A program made the translations under genes and the position numbers. Shown here piece after piece: positions 3,385 to 9,476 of a stretch of 64,000 nt of DNA (position 1 is its first letter; every line of letters starts with the position of its first letter). The stretch spans positions 91,903-155,902 of the forward strand of contig OZ246412.1 in assembly GCA_965231075.1 (NCBI GenBank). The letters run 5' to 3'. The notes beneath the pieces were generated by a model. It was not told the DNA's origin. It made no database searches and worked only from the letters and a program-made list of their open reading frames with translations. This DNA is from an uncultured Candidatus Saccharibacteria bacterium (lineage in GTDB: Bacteria; Patescibacteriota; Minisyncoccia; RBG-13-40-8-A).

Positions 3385-3669
3385 ATGAAAACACAAAAAG
3401 CAAACACAGAAAAGTGTCACGATTGTGGCAAAGAAATAAAAGTTATAAATGATGAACTAAAAAATGGTAAAGTTTTAGTTTACGACGATAATGGCAAAAA
3501 AATAACAATTATCAAATGCGATAGCTGTTATGAAAAAAATCCTGGATTAACAAATTTTAAAGAATGTGAGGTTTATTCAAGAATTGTCGGATATATTCGA
3601 CCGGTACAACAATGGAACAAAGGAAAACAACAAGAGTTTAAAGAAAGAAAAGAATTCGCTTCGTGTTAA
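3385..3669 (+). CDS. stand-alone NrdD C-terminal-like domain (zinc ribbon plus glycyl-radical motif)
   Basis: CHDCGKE...CDSCYE zinc ribbon followed by SRIVGYIRPVQQWNKGKQQEFKERK. This matches the conserved C-terminal Gly-radical segment of class III anaerobic ribonucleotide reductase (RxxGY...WNxGKxxEFKDR). Only 94 aa; no catalytic barrel. Confidence 0.55.
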   Translation: MKTQKANTEKCHDCGKEIKVINDELKNGKVLVYDDNGKKITIIKCDSCYEKNPGLTNFKECEVYSRIVGYIRPVQQWNKGKQQEFKERKEFASC

Positions 3670-3726: not shown

Positions 3727-3798
3727 TAGCGCTACGGGGAATCGAACCCCGATTGACAGATTGAAAATCTGCTGTCCTAACCGTTAGACGATAGCGCC
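3727..3798 (-). tRNA. tRNA-Glu (anticodon TTC)
   Basis: Manual cloverleaf: acceptor GGCGCTA/TAGCGCT, D-stem GTCT/GGAC, anticodon loop TTTTCAA, T-arm CGGGG-TTCGATT-CCCCG. Confidence 0.8.
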
Positions 3799-3867
3799 AT
3801 AAATAATTATTTTAATCATAACAAAAACATTGATTTTAATCAAGAAAAAAGGTAAAATGAGAATGTT

Positions 3868-3938
3868 GCGGGATTAATACAGTGGTAGTATGCGACCTTC
3901 CCAAGGTTGATGCGCCAGTTCGATTCTGGTATCCCGCT
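3868..3938 (+). tRNA. tRNA-Gly (anticodon CCC)
   Basis: Acceptor GCGGGAT/ATCCCGC, anticodon loop TTCCCAA, T-loop TTCGATT. Confidence 0.8.
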
Positions 3939-3940
3939 GT

Positions 3941-4012
3941 GCCGCCTTAGCTTAGTGGTAGAGCAATTGTTTCGTAAACAATAGATCCTCAGTTCGATTC
4001 TGAGAGGCGGCT
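3941..4012 (+). tRNA. tRNA-Thr (anticodon CGT)
   Basis: Acceptor GCCGCCT/AGGCGGC, anticodon stem ATTGT/ACAAT with loop TTCGTAA, short variable arm, T-arm CTCAG-TTCGATT-CTGAG. Confidence 0.8.
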
Positions 4013-4055: not shown

Positions 4056-5897
4056 ATGAAAAAAATTATGAACGAAGGCGAACATTTTCTCCACAAAAAA
4101 TATTCTGACCTCCACACTTCTCAACCCGTAGAACACGCACAACAAGAGAAAAAGAAAAAAGGAGAGTCAACATCACAAAAACCAGCAGATAAAATATCTG
4201 ACTTTCTTGAAGTAATTAAAAGAACCCACGGTCATCACGATGATCCACAAGTATTAGAAAGAATCAAAGAATATTATCATAAACAATACGTCATTAATCC
4301 CGAAGACGTCCCCGAATCATATTTTGATAATCAAAAACGTCTAGCCAGAGAACAAGGACACGGAGATATTGAAATCACCGACGAGATGCGAAAACAGGCC
4401 ACAGAGATAATCATTACCGACCAAGAATCAACTTTAGACAATTGGACGGAATATCTTTCTTCCAAAGATGCTGATGTTTATCCGGTCTGGGCAAGATACT
4501 GGGCATTCAGAAGCATGGTTAATCTTTCCACCTACGACAAAGAAAAGAAAGTATTCTCCAAACGAAAAAAAGATACAGTTGCTCCTTTTCCCGATTTAAA
4601 TCGTGAAGCATTGGCCAATGTCGTAGATATTATTACTAAAAAAGCAAAAAAAGAAAAAATATCATTAGCCGAAGATAATCCAGAATTACAAGAACTAATC
4701 AATCAAGAAAACTTCGGCAAGCTTTATGCTTACGCCATAGAAAAGATTACACCCACCGAAGTTAATGAATTAGAGATAACTGAAGGTAAATGGGTAAAAT
4801 ACAAACAAAATTCAGATCATATGCCATTGGTAGAATCTTTACAAGGATTTGGCACTGGTTGGTGCACAGCAGGAGAGTCAACGGCCGAGGCACAACTTAA
4901 AGGAGGTGATTTCTACGTCTATTACTCTAACAACAAACAAGGCAAGCCAATTATTCCCAGAATTGCTATCAGAATGCAGGGAAGCGAAATCGGAGAGGTG
5001 AGAGGCATTGCTCCAGATCAAAACTTAGATCCATACGTTAACGATATCGTTAAACAAAAACTACAACAGTTTCCTGACGGTAAACTTTACGAAAAGAAAC
5101 AAGCGGATATGAGGAAACTTACAGAAATCGATAACAAAAACAAAAAACAACAAGAATTAACCAAAGACGATTTAATTTTTCTTTACGAAATCGATTCTCC
5201 GATTCAAGGCTTCGGTTATCAAACCGATCCAAGAATAGTAGAAATACGAAAAACCAGGAATCCAATACAAGATGCACCAATTGTTTTTGAATGTGAGCCA
5301 AGTCAAATTGCCCACAATCAACAAGAAATCAATGAAAATACCAAAGCATATATTGGTCCGTTATTCGAAAATATTTTTCAATTAAATTTAGAGCACATTT
5401 ATACATCATTTCCGGAAAACAAAATCAGAAAGATGGAGACAACGATTGGAGGAAAAGACAAGACACAACTTTTAAAAGAGTTAAAAAAGAACAAAATCAA
5501 TATTGGTGATAATGCCGAATACATGATTAAGAGTGGTGATTTTACAACCTCCAAAAAACAAGAACAAATACAATTAATACGTTTAACAGTTGGTGACCTC
5601 GGTTTTCCAAATAGTGCCACAACACAACAAATATTCGATAAGGCCGAAAAATTAGGCCTAGAACTGTGTCCGGCGGAAACAGGTCCAAATTTACGACTAA
5701 ATTATTTAGATCAACCATTGGGAGAATGGTTTCGAATTGCGATGAAACAAATTACTGATGCCGATGGCTTCCCTCACGTGTTCAATCTGCATCACGTTGG
5801 CAGTGGTCTGTGGTTGGATGACTATTGGGCCCGTCCTGTCATCATGTGGAATTCTGCCCACAAGTTCGTATTCCGCTTTCGCAAGTTGAAAACTTAG
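4056..5897 (+). CDS. DGR target protein (613 aa) with C-terminal variable region
   Basis: Long ORF with no recognisable signal peptide. Its last ~45 codons (ITDADGFPHVFNLHHVGSGLWLDDYWARPVIMWNSAHKFVFRFRK) are an adenine-mutated copy of the TR. Confidence 0.8.
   Translation: MKKIMNEGEHFLHKKYSDLHTSQPVEHAQQEKKKKGESTSQKPADKISDFLEVIKRTHGHHDDPQVLERIKEYYHKQYVINPEDVPESYFDNQKRLAREQGHGDIEITDEMRKQATEIIITDQESTLDNWTEYLSSKDADVYPVWARYWAFRSMVNLSTYDKEKKVFSKRKKDTVAPFPDLNREALANVVDIITKKAKKEKISLAEDNPELQELINQENFGKLYAYAIEKITPTEVNELEITEGKWVKYKQNSDHMPLVESLQGFGTGWCTAGESTAEAQLKGGDFYVYYSNNKQGKPIIPRIAIRMQGSEIGEVRGIAPDQNLDPYVNDIVKQKLQQFPDGKLYEKKQADMRKLTEIDNKNKKQQELTKDDLIFLYEIDSPIQGFGYQTDPRIVEIRKTRNPIQDAPIVFECEPSQIAHNQQEINENTKAYIGPLFENIFQLNLEHIYTSFPENKIRKMETTIGGKDKTQLLKELKKNKINIGDNAEYMIKSGDFTTSKKQEQIQLIRLTVGDLGFPNSATTQQIFDKAEKLGLELCPAETGPNLRLNYLDQPLGEWFRIAMKQITDADGFPHVFNLHHVGSGLWLDDYWARPVIMWNSAHKFVFRFRKLKT
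5751..5886 (+). repeat. DGR variable region (VR)
   Basis: ~136 bp nearly identical to 6239..6376. Differences in the unambiguous core all fall at positions where the TR has A (VR has T, C or G), mostly in TR AAC codons. The 3' ~35 bp (gtggaattctg...ttccgctttcg) is conserved and IMH-like. Boundary nucleotides at each end are ambiguous. Confidence 0.8.
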
Positions 5898-6008
5898 AAA
5901 CCTTAAAGCTTTATAATTTAGTTTCTTTGATGCTTTGGTTCTTTGACACTTTGAAATTTTGTAGTTTTTTGATAAGATTGAATTGGGTAAATTGCATTGG
6001 ACGGTTGC

Positions 6009-6031
6009 GCCTGCTTTCTGGCAGACAGGGC
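6009..6031 (+). other. hairpin 1 between VR and TR
   Basis: gcctgctttctggcagacagggc, imperfect stem cctg..tctg/caga..cagg, followed by a T-rich run. Confidence 0.4.
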
Positions 6032-6080
6032 TTTTCAAAATTTTCTCAACAAACATAAATTGAGAGCGCAAACGGCTAAG

Positions 6081-6108
6081 CCTGCCTGTCGGCAGACAGG
6101 GTTTTTTG
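6081..6108 (+). terminator. intrinsic terminator-like hairpin 2 (stem shared with hairpin 1)
   Basis: cctgtc-ggca-gacagg stem-loop followed by ttttttg. Confidence 0.5.
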
Positions 6109-6238
6109 CGGAGTAGTTTATGTTTTGTTTCAAAAAAGAAAAAACTTGGTATATCGTGCTGGTTGATTTTAGATCACAAATAAAATACAGCCCAACATCT
6201 TAAAATTATGTGGGCAGTGCTATAGATGGCACGATATA

Positions 6239-6376
6239 TATAACTGATGCCGATGGCAACCCTAACGTGTTCAATCTGAATCACGATGACAATGGTCTGT
6301 GGTTGAATGACAATTGGGCCAATCCTGACAACAAGTGGAATTCTGACAACAAGTTCGTATTCCGCTTTCGAAAGTA
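6239..6376 (+). repeat. DGR template region (TR)
   Basis: Adenine-rich invariant copy of the VR. Sits in spurious ORF 6210..6596, where AAC (Asn) codons replace the varied VR codons. Confidence 0.8.
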
Positions 6377-6391
6377 TTATCTTTTCCGTGC

Positions 6392-6760
6392 TTATAAGGC
6401 ACGGTTTTTCTTTTCTGGATTATTTAAACTTTTTAGCCAACCACCAAATATTTTTCCAATTTCGTCTAACTTTAGTGCGATTTCTTCACATTGTTTGTGT
6501 GATATTAATTTACTCGTCCATGCCACAGAAACGAGAAACTTGAGAGCGTCCAATAAAAGAATACACTTTGGGATATTGGTTATTTTTATTTCTTGATTAG
6601 AAAAATAAGTCGTGTAAGTTAACTCCAAAAAATCCAAAAGCTTATTCTCTATTCTTTCGCCAATAGTATAACGATTGTGTTTCGGCATATGCGGAATAAT
6701 ATTTAGCCATATTAAATACGCTTCTTTGATTCTTTCCAAAATAGAAGTATTATTTGTCAT
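6392..6760 (-). CDS. avd: DGR accessory variability determinant (Avd, four-helix-bundle protein)
   Basis: 122 aa with the pattern ERIKEAYLIWLNIIPHMPKHNRYTIGERIENKLLDFLEL...ALKLDEIGKIFGGWLKSL, typical of bAvd / four-helix-bundle proteins. Lies between TR and RT. Confidence 0.75.
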   Translation of the reverse strand: MTNNTSILERIKEAYLIWLNIIPHMPKHNRYTIGERIENKLLDFLELTYTTYFSNQEIKITNIPKCILLLDALKFLVSVAWTSKLISHKQCEEIALKLDEIGKIFGGWLKSLNNPEKKNRAL

Positions 6761-7765
6761 ATGTATAATAATATCATATCAATTGAAAACTTGCTTTTAT
6801 CGTGGCAAGAATTTTTAAGAGGCAAGCGTAAAAGAAAAGATGTGGCGGAATTCTCTTTGAAGTTTTTTGATAATATTATAAAACTTCATCAAGAATTAAA
6901 ATTAAAAACCTATAAACATGGCGGGTATCAGGCGTTTAAAATAAATGATCCAAAACCACGCGATATCCACAAGGCCAGTGTTCACGATAGATTGGTTCAT
7001 CACGCCATATATCGAATTTTATATCCACATTTTGATAAAAAGTTCATTTTTGACTCCTATTCTTGCCGTTTAGAAAAAGGCACACACAAGGCGATAAATC
7101 GTTTTAGGAGTTATTATCGAAAGGTTAGCAAAAACAACACCAAAACTTGCTGGATTTTAAAATGCGATATTAGAAAATTTTTTGCTAACATAGATCATCA
7201 GGTTCTTAAAGATGTTTTGGCAAGACACATTAAAGATAAAAATGTTTTATGGCTCTTGGCACAAATTATTGACAGCTTTAATACGGAAAAGAAGAATGAC
7301 GTTGGCCTTCCGTTGGGCAATTTGACCAGCCAGCTTTTCGTAAATATTTATATGAACGAATTTGATCAATTCATTAAAAGAAATTTGAAAATCACACATT
7401 ATATTCGTTATGCGGACGATTTTATTGTTTTACACACGAACAAATCATATTTGGAAGCGATAATTATCATAATGTTTAAGTTTTTGAAAGAACAATTAAA
7501 GCTCGACCTGCATCCTGATAAAATTTTTATAAAAACTCTGTTTTCGGGAATTGATTTTTTGGGCTGGGTTAATTTTTATTATCATCGAATATTGCGAACC
7601 GCAACAAAACGTAGAATGTTAAGGAATATTAACAATAAACTTGAACCAGGGAGCATTGCATCGTATTTAGGATTGCTTTCGCACGGAAACACTTATGAGC
7701 TTTCGTCTCTTTTGACTTTATTATTTTTAAGGTATAATGATAAGTACGATGACAATTCAGGATAA
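6761..7765 (+). CDS. DGR reverse transcriptase
   Basis: RT motifs present, including YADDF (YxDD). Motif 4 reads LPLGNLTSQLF, the DGR-type replacement for the group II intron QGxxxSP. N-terminus has the DGR-RT-like IENLLLSWQEFLRGKRKRKDV. Confidence 0.9.
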   Translation: MYNNIISIENLLLSWQEFLRGKRKRKDVAEFSLKFFDNIIKLHQELKLKTYKHGGYQAFKINDPKPRDIHKASVHDRLVHHAIYRILYPHFDKKFIFDSYSCRLEKGTHKAINRFRSYYRKVSKNNTKTCWILKCDIRKFFANIDHQVLKDVLARHIKDKNVLWLLAQIIDSFNTEKKNDVGLPLGNLTSQLFVNIYMNEFDQFIKRNLKITHYIRYADDFIVLHTNKSYLEAIIIIMFKFLKEQLKLDLHPDKIFIKTLFSGIDFLGWVNFYYHRILRTATKRRMLRNINNKLEPGSIASYLGLLSHGNTYELSSLLTLLFLRYNDKYDDNSG

Positions 7766-8793
7766 AATTGAAGATTTAAAAATTAAGACCCGCCAAATGG
7801 CGGACTGTCTTTGATTTAGAAAACAAAAAACAAAGAATTATTCAATTAGAAATTTTAACCCAAGAAGGAAATTTTTGGAAGGACAGTCAAAAGGCAGCAA
7901 AAATAAGCAAGGAATTGGCGGAGCTAAGAGAAGAGGTTGATATTTGGAACGGACTAGAAAAAGACTTAATCGGGATAAAAGATGAATCAATGTTATCTGC
8001 TTGGGAAGAAAGATTTAAAAAAGAAGAATTTAAGGCACTGTTTTCGGGAAAATACGACAGAAAAAATGCAATTGTTTCCATCTATTCTGGTGCCGGCGGG
8101 ACAGAAGCACAGGATTGGGCGAACATGCTACTGCGAATGTATTCGCGTTATGCCGAAAAACACAACTTAAAATACAAATTAATTGATATTAGTTTTGGAC
8201 AGGAAGCGGGAATTAAAAACGCAGTTTTAGAGATTGATGGTGCATATGTGTATGGATATTTAAAAAAAGAAAATGGCGTGCATCGCTTAGTTAGACAGTC
8301 GCCATTCAATTCTGATAATTTAAGACACACATCATTTGCCTTGGTAGAGGTTTTGCCGGAGATTGGCAAAGACGTTGAATCGGAAATCGAAATTAAACCA
8401 GACGACCTAAAAATTGATACTTTTCGTTCTTCGGGTCCGGGTGGACAGAATGTAAATATGCGTTCAACTGCAATTAGAATCACTCACTTACCAACGAAAT
8501 TGGTGGTTGCTTGTCAGGGAGAAAGAAGTCAGGCACAGAATCGAGAAAGGGCAATGAGTATTCTTTACACGAAAATCTATCAAAAAAAACTTCAAGAGGC
8601 AGCTGAAGAAAAGAAAGAAATTCGCGGAGAGCTCCCGTCTGTAGAGTGGGGAAGTCAGATTCGTTCTTATGTTTTACATCCCTATAAAATGGTTAAAGAT
8701 CACAGAACAGAAATAGAAAGTTCTCACCCAGAAGAGGTTTTAGATGGAGATTTAGACGAATTTATAGAAGCAGAGATAAAAATCAAAAATTAA
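7749..8793 (+). CDS. prfB: peptide chain release factor 2 with programmed +1 ribosomal frameshift (frame 0: 7749..7811; frame +1: 7813..8793)
   Basis: The downstream ORF has the SPF tripeptide and GGQ motifs but lacks an N-terminus. The upstream frame MTIQDKIEDLKIKTRQMADCL ends at CTT TGA T (7809-7815), the classic RF2 CUU-UGA shift site. The +1 frame continues DLENKKQRIIQLEIL..., parallel to E. coli RF2. Start could also be ATG 7737. Confidence 0.8.
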
Positions 8794-8798
8794 TTAAA

Positions 8799-9476
8799 AT
8801 GATTGAATTTAAAAACGTTTCAAAATTTTATAACGATTGTTCGGCACTAGACAAGGTAACTTTTAGTATTAAACCAAAAGAATTTGTTTCAATTGTCGGT
8901 CGTTCCGGTGCTGGCAAAACCACGCTTTTGAAAATGCTTTTAAAGGAAGAAGAACCAAGTGAAGGAGAAATTATTGTTGATGGCAGAGATGTTGGTAAAT
9001 TAAAAAAACACGACATACCAATATACCGTAGAAAAATTGGTTCAATTTTCCAGGATTTTAAATTATTACCCAATAAAACTGCCTATGAAAACATCGCCTT
9101 TGCTATGGAGGCGGCAGGAAGAACTGAACAGGAAATCGCGGTTGATGTTCCACAAATTTTAAATTTAGTAGAATTAACCGACAAAGCCAATAACTTTCCT
9201 TGTCAACTTTCTGGCGGAGAAAAACAAAGAGTGGCGATTGGCAGGGCATTGGTTCATAAACCAGACATTTTAATGGCCGACGAACCAACAGGAAACCTTG
9301 ATCCACTACACACCTGGGATATCATTAGATTACTTTGCCGAATTAATGAATTAGGAACTACGGTTATTTTGGCAACACACGATCGAGAAATTATTAATGC
9401 ACTAGGAAAAAGAGTATTAAGTTTTGATAAAGGAAGATTGATTAGGGACGAGGAGGTTGGAAGATATATTGTTTGA
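8799..9476 (+). CDS. ftsE: cell division ATP-binding protein FtsE
   Basis: Walker A GRSGAGKTT, ABC signature LSGGEKQRVAIGRAL, Walker B ILMADEPTGNLD. Position after prfB is conserved. Confidence 0.9.
   Translation: MIEFKNVSKFYNDCSALDKVTFSIKPKEFVSIVGRSGAGKTTLLKMLLKEEEPSEGEIIVDGRDVGKLKKHDIPIYRRKIGSIFQDFKLLPNKTAYENIAFAMEAAGRTEQEIAVDVPQILNLVELTDKANNFPCQLSGGEKQRVAIGRALVHKPDILMADEPTGNLDPLHTWDIIRLLCRINELGTTVILATHDREIINALGKRVLSFDKGRLIRDEEVGRYIV

Follow-up and report, generated by a model that had tools for sequence, protein, structure and literature searches.

The question raised by this locus is whether two imperfect copies of one segment, the first closing a gene for a large hypothetical protein and the second lying just behind it, are the variable repeat (VR) and template repeat (TR) of a diversity-generating retroelement (DGR), and whether such an element would still be at work. 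To our knowledge, DGRs are the sole natural means by which prokaryotes hypermutate proteins in a targeted way. No lineage is more enriched in DGRs than the bacteria of the CPR, and we know of essentially no characterization of either the targets or the RNA requirements of CPR DGRs. In the window analysed here, i.e. the whole 64-kb stretch of DNA to which all positions refer, the locus very likely is a complete chromosomal DGR of the Patescibacteria (CPR) type, and its sequence features suggest that it is probably active.

The repeat pair carries most of this argument. A repeat search matched 5744-5886 with 6233-6375 (143 nt, 85% identical, offset 489, ungapped), and the VR (5751-5886, plus strand) aligns with the TR (6240-6375, plus strand) over 136 positions with no gaps and 18 mismatches, which bears out the repeat described in an earlier sequence-only reading. 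The mismatches fall at VR positions 5753, 5769, 5770, 5775, 5790, 5797, 5800, 5803, 5817, 5823, 5832, 5833, 5839, 5842, 5845, 5857, 5859, and 5882. The TR, with 41 A in 136 nt, has an A at all 18 of them, while the VR has T (8), C (6), or G (4) there. The chance of such a restriction is 1.7e-11 (hypergeometric) or 4e-10 (binomial), and still 3.9e-10 if two edge sites are left out. Non-A mismatches are confined to 5746, 5748, and 5750, i.e. 5' of the homology limit. The sequence-only reading had claimed A-only mismatches until homology ends, 17 substitutions, and 14 replaced residues (F, H, H, V, G, S, D, Y, R, V, I, M, A, H); all residues are correct, the 17 substitutions are exactly the sites from 5769 to 5882, no other TR base is affected, and the alignment, mismatch table, and binomial test that it had suggested gave an A-specific pattern. 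Its statement that mostly AAC codons vary needs revision, given that AAT is the commonest variable TR codon (7), followed by AAC (4), GAC (4), and AAG (2).

At the protein level, the VR covers codons 566-610 of the 613-codon target, with substitutions observed from 5753 to 5859 and 14 codons changed relative to the TR. All mismatches sit at codon position 1 or 2 except the edge site 5753 and the synonymous CGA/CGC difference at 5882, and the TR adenines lie at positions 1 and 2 of variable codons, just as a VR/TR reading requires. The potentially variable TR codons hold 36 A, which corresponds to about 10^20.6 possible protein variants. The further VR copies or remote targets for which a genome-wide search had been proposed were sought across the 64-kb window, where an 18-mer search with 3 mismatches and blastn of the TR found no second copy, and tblastn of the C-terminal domain and the reverse transcriptase (RT) returned only the known pair and no second RT.

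The 3' end of the VR (5860-5886, plus strand) is IMH-like. Its invariant block consists of 22 nt identical to the TR (5860-5881) and another 4 nt (5883-5886), shorter than the approximately 35 bp first proposed, and is interrupted by a single difference, C5882 in the VR versus A6371 in the TR. Both versions (CGCAAG in the VR, CGAAAG in the TR) encode Arg-Lys, and the same VR=C/TR=A difference recurs in most of the approximately 30 independent related loci compared. Judged by this recurrence, C5882/A6371 is a fixed discriminator, putatively of the IMH/IMH* type, and not a product of mutagenesis, although it had been counted as the last A>C substitution. The earlier label “IMH-like” thus holds in spirit, but its terminal A>C has to be read as a conserved IMH/IMH*-type difference. 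An invariant block of 22 nt, a fixed C/A difference, and subsequent divergence fit IMH/IMH* in the position and apparent logic of the VR 3' end, but the GC-rich segment is absent. In one related locus (L021), A-mutagenesis extends to 8 nt 5' of GAAAG, and the start of cDNA synthesis can be bounded because of this reach and the fixed discriminator.

No GC-rich, cruciform-type inverted repeat was found after the VR; instead, the 3' UTR of the target directly behind the VR holds an 8-nt tandem array detected by TRF (5923-5954, plus strand; TTCTTTGA x4), preceded by looser CTTAG/CTTAA/CTTTA units from 5893 onwards. The array is conserved in the leader alignment described below and enriched relative to a coding control and, with p = 0.001, relative to loci without a detected DGR. 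Its last unit overlaps the -35 element of the promoter of the TR-containing RNA, and we considered the CTTTGA array as solely a promoter or UP element of this RNA. This was rejected because the array keeps its place downstream of the VR even when a locus has its TR module inverted or upstream, so that promoting the TR RNA is not its only role. Exclusiveness to DGR loci holds only partly, as some loci lacking a DGR within 4 kb carry the array too; these could be remote targets or truncated contigs.

The TR itself sits in a conserved RNA of roughly 430 nt with a covarying scaffold mostly on its 5' side. The predicted promoter (5951-5978, plus strand) comprises a -35 element TTGAAA (5951-5956), a TG (5970-5971), and a -10 element TAAGAT (5973-5978). 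The pattern TGnTATAMT is conserved in 21 loci, with -10 positions 1, 2, and 6 (T5973, A5974, and T5978) invariant, and the RNA would start near 5985. It opens with a structured leader (5984-6124, plus strand), for which alignment A6, RNAalifold, and pair counts gave four covarying helices (5984-5993/6039-6048, 5997-6006/6029-6038, 6052-6061/6115-6124, and 6067-6077/6100-6110) forming two similar hairpins with CGGYUAYGGCUU loops. Of the 37 leader pairs, 28 show compensatory changes, and 93.5% are paired versus 41-51% in slid controls (0/500 shuffles); an inserted hairpin of approximately 20 nt in each loop (6007-6030 and 6080-6100) is found only in the source genome. Two other candidates were discarded on the basis of the 21-locus alignment: the hairpin 6085-6100 with its T-run as a terminator of the target gene, and TATGTT (6129-6134) as a -10 box, both of which fall inside the covarying leader helices, the conserved promoter being that at 5951-5978.

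A 5' domain abuts the TR (6142-6241, plus strand; alignment A3) and consists of ACUUGG, P1 (6149-6160/6228-6239), P2 (6164-6168/6172-6176), the conserved AUAAAAUACAGC between P2 and P3, P3 (6190-6198/6208-6215), and GGCAGUG. Compensatory changes support 22 of its 25 pairs (93.1% paired versus 26-47% slid; 0/500), and a covariance model of this domain (R1) matches once per DGR locus and once in the window, at 113 bits the second highest score among all loci. Just 3' of the TR follow a hairpin (6386-6404) and a U-rich tract (GGUUUUUCUUUUC; together 6386-6417, plus strand) that appears terminator-like by scan. This hairpin of 6-8 bp is located 10 nt past the TR in every locus, 6/6 stem pairs covary, and 96.9% are paired versus 27-49% slid; its region overlaps the stop and C-terminal codons of avd (PEKKNRAL*). 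Its position matches the Avd-binding stem-loop located just downstream of the TR in Bordetella (Handa et al., bioRxiv 10.1101/2023.10.23.563531), and by analogy the hairpin and U-tract are candidates for an Avd-binding stem-loop and/or a terminator. Antisense avd coding begins only 17 nt past the TR, and the conserved helices lie upstream of it. The two sides could be linked only by low-complexity A-rich:U-rich pairing (6128-6143 with 6405-6417, -10.3 kcal/mol), and we only infer a template:primer pairing of TR-GAAAG with UUUUC because it is energetically weak and of low complexity.

The protein machinery adjoins this RNA. The RT gene (6761-7765, plus strand) encodes 334 aa with LPLGNLTSQLF and YADD, in agreement with the DGR-clade signature of [ILV]GxxxSQ plus YxDD; this assignment is based on motifs and homology (RVT_1, 5e-24; phrog_1423, 3.5e-105), with Bordetella bRT (8ub7_A) as the best PDB match (E 8.9e-41, residues 4-303). 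Between TR and RT, and antisense to both, lies avd (6392-6760, minus strand; 122 aa), whose ATG is back-to-back with that of the RT gene (0 nt between). It matches PF22296 bAvd (5.3e-16; 59.5 bits, above the cutoff of 40) and phrog_3206, labelled “Avd protein of DGR” (6.5e-20), while its 67.9 bits against NCBIfam NF033474 DivGenRetAVD are below the equivalog cutoff of 80. The locus thus has an accessory protein of one of the three expected classes (Avd, HRDC, or MSL). With RT, bAvd-family gene, A-rich TR, and C-terminal VR all side by side, the original interpretation as the VR/TR pair of a DGR is well supported.

The target gene (4056-5897, plus strand) encodes 613 aa, or 609 aa from an alternative start at 4068 (P0001), and belongs to a large Patescibacteria set of “hypothetical proteins” of about 610 aa with >3,400 homologs at E<=1e-3, those named all being from Patescibacteria (MAGs). 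It has no annotation by sequence in Pfam (even at E <= 10), NCBIfam, PHROGs, or PADLOC, no match in the PDB by phmmer or profile search, and no detectable “PcfJ-like” motif, as has been reported for some CPR DGR targets (Wu et al. 2018, PMC5758913). We found neither transmembrane nor signal-like hydrophobic segments (maximum 19-aa Kyte-Doolittle score 0.64), and the protein is apparently cytoplasmic. An AF2 model (pLDDT 88) suggests a C-terminal variable-protein domain (residues 436-613; 5361-5894, plus strand) that models as a divergent C-type-lectin fold with the VR on its last strands; a CLec (or Ig) fold is what a DGR variable domain is expected to have. The sequence entropy across the target family peaks (about 3 bits) exactly at the TR-adenine codons, and the invariant V575, F576, W598, and F606 interleave with these hypervariable codons in the family alignment. 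Outside the VR, the cysteine in GTGWCTAG (C270) is invariant as well.

Can the pattern be explained without a DGR, or with one of another kind? A partial duplication of the target 3' end, i.e. a pseudogene fragment drifting neutrally and independently of the adjacent RT, would account for a TR in open frame (ORF 6210-6596) with a peptide 69% identical to that of the VR. However, this ORF has no family match, drift would scatter mismatches over all four bases instead of placing every one at A, and the copied part is exactly the variable segment. Moreover, the TR lies within a covarying RNA that is linked to RT and Avd in three different arrangements across about 30 loci, so that a duplication is effectively refuted already and its probability close to nil. 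Hardly more credible is that the DGR belongs to a phage or prophage and, like that of Bordetella phage BPP-1, diversifies a receptor-binding tail protein. The RT and Avd do match phage families (phrog_1423 and phrog_3206), and tRNA genes, common integration sites, flank the cassette, but the target has no PHROG match, no signal peptide, and no fibre-like repeats. Furthermore, the neighbours are housekeeping genes (tsaD, uvdE, tRNAs, and prfB, whose start at 7749 is overlapped by the RT 3' end), the cassette of an 83%-identical relative (L081) is placed between map and a glycosyltransferase after rplO-secY-adk, and the CPR DGRs of “DGR clade 2” have been described as cellular (Roux et al. 2021, PMC8144416).

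More serious, albeit still improbable, is a fossil DGR, once active but with a now frozen VR and a target that is no longer diversified. Decay does occur among the relatives: L026 has TR mismatches at all four bases (G7, C4, A5, T5), a partial avd, and no RT, only remnants of RNA and avd are left in L016 and L037, and about half of the target-family loci have no DGR within 4 kb. In addition, a search for VR population variants with TR-A positions masked yielded 0 matches in JGI metagenome contigs, a result that says little because the identical protein was seen only in Logan assemblies. The locus studied here, on the other hand, has a full-length RT with YADD and LGNLTSQ, an intact avd and promoter, zero non-A mismatches over 136 nt, and the high RNA score given above. 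The reading as a DGR is further supported by approximately 30 related Patescibacteria loci that possess the same module with A-restricted VR/TR patterns (e.g. 25/25, 24/24, 23/23), the order TR(+)-avd(-)-RT(+) being kept in about 30 loci. Compared with L081, the VRs differ at 14 of the 36 TR-A sites that they share. At non-A positions, each VR goes with its own TR (9 VR-VR versus 10 TR-TR differences), which indirectly suggests that homing has occurred since the lineages split.

If the DGR is active, a sequence of events can be proposed, in which the mechanistic steps are drawn by analogy from published elements of the Bordetella RNP. A non-coding RNA of approximately 430 nt would be transcribed from the conserved extended -10 promoter, starting near 5985 and ending at or near the hairpin and U-tract, and its structured parts would be bound by an RT-Avd complex. 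Reverse transcription of the TR would begin just 5' of the conserved GAAAG motif, with misincorporation opposite TR adenines, and might stop where helix P1 abuts the TR. The cDNA would then replace the VR by homing, a step to which the invariant 3' block, together with the fixed CGC (VR) versus CGA (TR), would give its direction. The outcome might be up to about 10^20 variants of a divergent C-type-lectin domain, differing in 22 residues of its ligand-binding face.

Much of this is shared with the prototype, the Bordetella BPP-1 DGR (mtd-avd-TR-brt), for which the structure of the bRT-Avd-RNA complex is available (PDB 8ub7; Handa et al., bioRxiv 10.1101/2023.10.23.563531): RT family and motifs, Avd, a TR length of about 135 nt, mutagenesis confined to A at AAY codons, a CLec-fold domain (here modelled) with the VR at its C-terminal tip, an invariant 3' block containing a difference that tells TR and VR apart, and a stem-loop immediately 3' of the TR. 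The nearest known variable-protein structures are Mtd (1yu0) and TvpA (2y3c), and the wider CLec/FGE-sulfatase fold. Unlike in BPP-1, avd is antisense and located between TR and RT, the spacer RNA of about 140 nt downstream of the TR is missing while about 255 nt of conserved structured RNA lie upstream, and P1 is formed by two upstream strands instead of a stop duplex of upstream and downstream strands. Likewise, the IMH-like block is AT-rich and not (GC)14, and the VR is followed by the tandem 8-mer array and not by a GC-rich inverted repeat, which occurs downstream of the IMH in 34% of DGRs (Wu et al. 2018, PMC5758913). The element is chromosomal, and its target neither is a tail fibre nor carries an export signal.

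The similarities to other CPR DGRs, known as the “CPR set” with architecture B3 (Wu et al. 2018, PMC5758913), comprise a Patescibacteria host, an avd/TR arrangement unlike the prototype, and a target with no recognizable domains, TM, or signal peptide and a VR class unassignable by sequence; likeness to B3 and to the UVR classes (UVR1-6) was judged by text description only. In the CPR-DGR literature compared, Paul et al. 2017 excepted, we found no precedent for the fold assigned here or for the RNA scaffold, the fixed discriminator, and the array next to the VR. The scaffold also resembles an orphan RNA motif: the Rfam model RT-16 (RF03019) aligns at full length to 6118-6246 and shares AUAAAAUACAGCC, the hairpin after it, GGCRGUG, the enclosing stem, and the adjoining RT gene. 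Its score is 29.7 bits (E 0.011-0.028) versus a gathering threshold of 50, its 5' hairpin is poorly matched, and 0/16 related loci reached that threshold. On this comparison, the 5' domain is a relative of RT-16 rather than a member. No role was assigned to RT-16, and only RT-10, lying downstream of the TR, had been tied to a DGR (Weinberg et al. 2017, PMC5737381).

The basic picture of DGR function is left unchanged by this locus, which is a known mechanism met in a little-studied lineage. Together with its approximately 30 relatives, it offers a clean and comparable example of a CPR DGR, assigns a divergent C-type-lectin fold to a VR for which sequence searches give neither a Pfam family nor a solved structure, and proposes a role for an RNA motif resembling RT-16. 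It further names cis elements (discriminator base, VR-linked 8-mer array, and 5' scaffold) that could help to reconstitute or engineer compact DGRs. It also supports the view that CPR targets may be proteins outside the membrane, a point that Roux et al. 2021 (PMC8144416) had not settled. As a tentative and broader reading, which we hold to be possible rather than likely, CPR DGRs might vary the Bordetella paradigm mechanistically: the RNA scaffold that positions RT-Avd would be permuted to a place 5' of the TR (six covarying helices in about 255 nt, in part the orphan Rfam motif RT-16), and the VR would be marked for homing by an AT-rich invariant block, a fixed C/A discriminator, and a VR-linked CTTTGA 8-mer array replacing the GC-rich IMH/cruciform. 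The diversified protein would then belong to an abundant, cytoplasmic, lectin-tipped family across Patescibacteria, and, if this is true, the CPR DGR target would be intracellular rather than at the cell surface.

A repeat search recovered an ungapped 143-nt direct repeat (5744-5886 and 6233-6375; 85% identity, offset 489), and position-by-position tabulation of 136 nt of it (5751-5886 against 6240-6375) gave 18 mismatches, at all of which the downstream copy carries A and the upstream copy T (eight), C (six) or G (four). With 41 adenines in the downstream copy, exclusive placement of the 18 mismatches on A has a hypergeometric probability of 1.7e-11 (3.9e-10 if the edge sites 5753 and 5882 are left out); non-A mismatches occur only at 5746, 5748 and 5750, upstream of the start of homology. 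The adenine-only pattern proposed in a sequence-only reading is thus borne out, and its 17 substitutions and 14 amino-acid replacements were exact, but its statement that most mismatches fall in AAC codons of the template does not hold, as AAT leads (seven) over AAC and GAC (four each) and AAG (two). The differences sit at codon positions 1 and 2, and the 36 potentially mutable adenines, spread over 22 codons, would allow ~10^20.6 protein variants. The upstream copy is the variable repeat (VR) and the downstream copy the template repeat (TR) of a diversity-generating retroelement (DGR). A search for further VR copies, which the same reading had proposed, found none within the 64-kb window, nor was a second reverse transcriptase (RT) found there.

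The VR forms the last 45 codons of a 613-aa target ORF (4056-5897), while the TR is non-coding. Ending 17 nt beyond the TR, on the minus strand and opposite to it, a 122-aa avd ORF (6392-6760) matches Pfam bAvd (5.3e-16, over the cutoff), PHROG 'Avd protein of DGR' (6.5e-20) and NCBIfam DivGenRetAVD (67.9 bits, under the equivalog cutoff of 80). Back-to-back with its start codon begins a 334-aa RT (6761-7765) with the DGR hallmark LGNLTSQ and the catalytic YADD, whose best solved relative is bRT, the Bordetella phage DGR enzyme (8ub7_A; E 8.9e-41, residues 4-303). With the target and its repeat copy, the TR, a bAvd-type ORF and a DGR-type RT found together, every DGR component is present beside the repeat. 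The two start codons abut on opposite strands (CAT directly followed by ATG, 6758-6763), so that each promoter must lie within the coding sequence of the other gene, unless RT translation uses a TR transcript that reads through antisense to avd; the same arrangement occurs in the closest relative (L081), and tblastn matches in other related loci leave apparent avd-RT gaps of ~25-90 nt.

The flanks consist of housekeeping genes (tsaD, uvdE, three tRNAs and prfB), among which no signs of a prophage were found. The RT 3' end (7765) overlaps the start of prfB (release factor 2; 7749-8793) by 17 nt. This gene has a programmed +1 frameshift: its first ORF, MTIQDKIEDLKIKTRQMADCL, stops at an in-frame UGA (7812-7814) following CUU, and the +1 frame runs on to encode the SPF and GGQ motifs. 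That this CPR genome encodes RF2 implies that it uses UGA as a stop. A 94-aa ORF (3385-3669) matches only the extreme C-terminus of the anaerobic ribonucleotide reductase NrdD (PF13597, model positions 509-562 of 562, E 3.4e-12) and is either an isolated fragment or a related protein of small size. The three tRNA genes (3727-4012) directly precede the target, all in the 330 nt before it, and tRNA genes occur a few kb or less from the cassette in five of 16 scanned related loci (L015, L038, L041, L046 and L059). Neighbours otherwise vary between relatives, with rplO-secY-adk-map upstream and a glycosyltransferase downstream in L081, which suggests that the target-TR-avd-RT block moves as a unit.

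The target has no match in Pfam, NCBIfam, PHROG or PADLOC, and none among PDB sequences even with a 111-sequence profile. Its family is nevertheless large (>3,400 matches at E <= 1e-3, typically ~610 aa and 55-65% identical), and the named members, all annotated 'hypothetical', come from Patescibacteria/CPR MAGs, a few bins with other phylum labels excepted. Across 32 members, entropy peaks of ~3 bits coincide exactly with the codons bearing adenines in the window TR and alternate with invariant V575, F576, W598 and F606, so the entire family looks like a DGR target scaffold. Modelling points to a divergent C-type-lectin-like fold for the VR-bearing domain; the N-terminal domain has no recognizable fold relatives. 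Within the latter region, the motif GTGWCTAG (residues 266-273, ~4851-4874) with invariant C270, together with invariant R302, R316, Q322, N323 and D325, suggests a conserved active or binding site. With a Kyte-Doolittle score of at most 0.64 over 19 residues, the target has no hydrophobic segment, and its N-terminus is highly charged; no signal peptide or transmembrane helix is thus evident.

For comparison, we used 80 family-member loci (L-numbers) from GTDB species representatives and the contig of L081, an 83%-identical relative. About half of the loci carry RT and avd within 4 kb, in a conserved unit of TR(+), avd(-) and RT(+). In most cases the unit follows the target and is oriented like it, but it is sometimes inverted and precedes the target in two loci. 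Judged by its text description, this unit fits the 'B3' architecture, reported for 90% of CPR DGRs and almost nowhere else (Wu et al., PMC5758913). VR-TR pairs were assigned in 32 loci, with mismatches nearly all at TR adenines (e.g. 25/25, 24/24, 23/23 and 22/22). The TRs of the window and L081 differ at ten positions, all where they share no A. Between the VRs, differences occupy 14 of 36 shared TR-A positions and nine of 96 others, and at the non-A positions each VR follows its own TR. Each VR would thus have been rewritten from its own TR after the lineages split, the best available evidence of a working element. No VR variants were found in JGI metagenomes, but the window genome appears only in Logan assemblies. 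Two loci are structurally ambiguous. In L007, a 231-nt target 3' end (5646-5876 and 8752-8982) and the RNA domain 5' of the TR (6098-6216 and 9204-9322) each occur twice, 100% identical and ~3.1 kb apart, reflecting either an artefact of assembly or a two-target DGR in which the target-TR unit was duplicated in tandem. L029 has RT and avd but only ~80 nt (1971-2059) between target end and avd, too short for a TR; its VR and TR may have been merged during metagenome assembly, as can happen to any two ~85%-identical copies spaced 490 nt apart.

Neutral duplication as the origin of the repeat is excluded by the adenine bias. The housekeeping neighbourhood and the nature of the target, which lacks a PHROG match, make a phage tail-fibre DGR unlikely. 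We consider it improbable that the DGR has lost its activity and is now frozen: RT, avd, promoter and RNA are all intact and the VR/TR alignment holds no non-A mismatch, in contrast to L026 (3074-3641), which keeps the 5' RNA domain (92 bits) and a partial avd, lacks an RT and has mismatches at all four bases (G7, C4, A5, T5). L026 and two loci with weaker RNA-domain matches and only avd or RT fragments (L016, 2643-2746; L037, 6086-6205) are apparently decaying DGRs and useful negative controls for the adenine bias.

At the 3' boundary, an invariant block is present as the sequence-only reading had claimed, but it measures 22 nt (5860-5881) plus 4 nt instead of ~35. The intervening mismatch, 5882, falls on a TR adenine like the other 17 but is not a mutagenesis product: CGCAAG in the VR and CGAAAG in the TR (both Arg-Lys) recur in most of ~30 loci compared, and random misincorporation would not yield C each time. 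By this comparison, CGC/CGA appears to be a fixed, synonymous discriminator equivalent in logic to IMH/IMH*. True A-mutagenesis in L021 extends to at least 8 nt 5' of GAAAG, placing the cDNA start within a few nt of GAAAG.

Conservation spans the entire VR-TR spacer. Directly 5' of the TR lies an RNA domain of ~100 nt (6142-6241) composed of ACUUGG, a 12-bp closing helix (P1) whose 3' strand adjoins the TR, the P2 hairpin, a conserved single strand AUAAAAUACAGC, the P3 hairpin and GGCAGUG. Among 30 sequences, 22 of 25 pairs show compensatory changes and 93% of cells are paired, compared with 26-47% with slid partners; none of 500 shuffles reached the observed values. The covariance model has a single match in the window (113 bits) and one in each DGR locus; among DGR-less family loci it matches only three, which have DGR remnants. 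No Rfam model matched at gathering thresholds. RF03019 'RT-16', one of 19 'RT motifs' near RT genes, of which only RT-10 was tied to a DGR (Weinberg et al., PMC5737381), aligns full length at relaxed thresholds (29.7 bits, gathering score 50), and none of 16 related loci reaches its threshold; the domain is therefore a relative but no member of RT-16. Further upstream, a conserved extended -10 element (TGnTATAMT; TG 5970-5971, TAAGAT 5973-5978 in the window; positions 1, 2 and 6 invariant across 21 loci) predicts an RNA start near 5985. The leader adds four helices (28 of 37 pairs compensatory; 93.5% paired versus 41-51% slid; 0/500 shuffles), two of them similar hairpins with CGGYUAYGGCUU loops. 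Each of these loops holds a lineage-specific ~20-nt hairpin insertion (GCCTGY..GGCAGACAGGG), accounting for a 35-nt direct repeat (6001-6035 and 6072-6106); the motif occurs nowhere else in the window, and the insertions are missing from L081 and other aligned loci, with a different insertion at the second site in L041.

Ten nucleotides 3' of the TR starts a hairpin (6386-6404; 6/6 consensus pairs covary) that with the following GGUUUUUCUUUUC looks like an intrinsic terminator. Its position is that of the Avd-binding stem-loop predicted in 207 of 278 DGRs, CPR ones included (Handa et al., 10.1101/2023.10.23.563531), making it a candidate by position; it also overlaps the avd stop codon and the codons of the Avd C-terminal PEKKNRAL, so that more than one cause could account for its conservation. 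The locus cannot accommodate the ~140-nt downstream spacer of Bordetella, which places the RNA scaffold upstream. An A-rich tract (6128-6143) could form a duplex with a U-rich tract (6405-6417; -10.3 kcal/mol in the window, mean over loci -7.1 versus -4.6 for shuffled controls), though both are of low complexity.

The target stop codon is directly followed by 8-nt units in tandem (TTCTTTGA x4, 5923-5954; looser units from 5893). This array takes the position at which Bordetella and Legionella have a GC-rich inverted repeat; the locus lacks such a repeat. The array is conserved across loci and, where the TR module is inverted or upstream, stays downstream of the VR and before the target's terminator, and the TR promoter region lacks it. 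Per 160 nt past the stop codon, DGR loci have 2.46 copies of CTTTG, compared with 0.03 for a coding control and 1.25 for loci in which no DGR was detected (p = 0.001); some of the latter loci also carry the array. We hypothesize that it acts in target-site recognition.

By analogy with Bordetella and from the anatomy of the locus, an RNA of ~430 nt (about 5985-6415) would bind RT-Avd, cDNA synthesis would begin just 5' of the TR GAAAG, mutate opposite A and end at P1, and the cDNA would replace the VR, with directionality set by the C/A discriminator together with the invariant block. Earlier publications already describe DGRs in CPR bacteria, with their distinct architecture and targets that resist annotation. 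Going beyond the accessible literature are the modelled fold of this VR domain, the size and apparently cytoplasmic nature of the target family, the 5'-located covarying RNA scaffold with its link to RT-16, and the putative fixed discriminator base and VR-linked 8-mer array, which together provide useful leads for specialists and leave the DGR paradigm in place.
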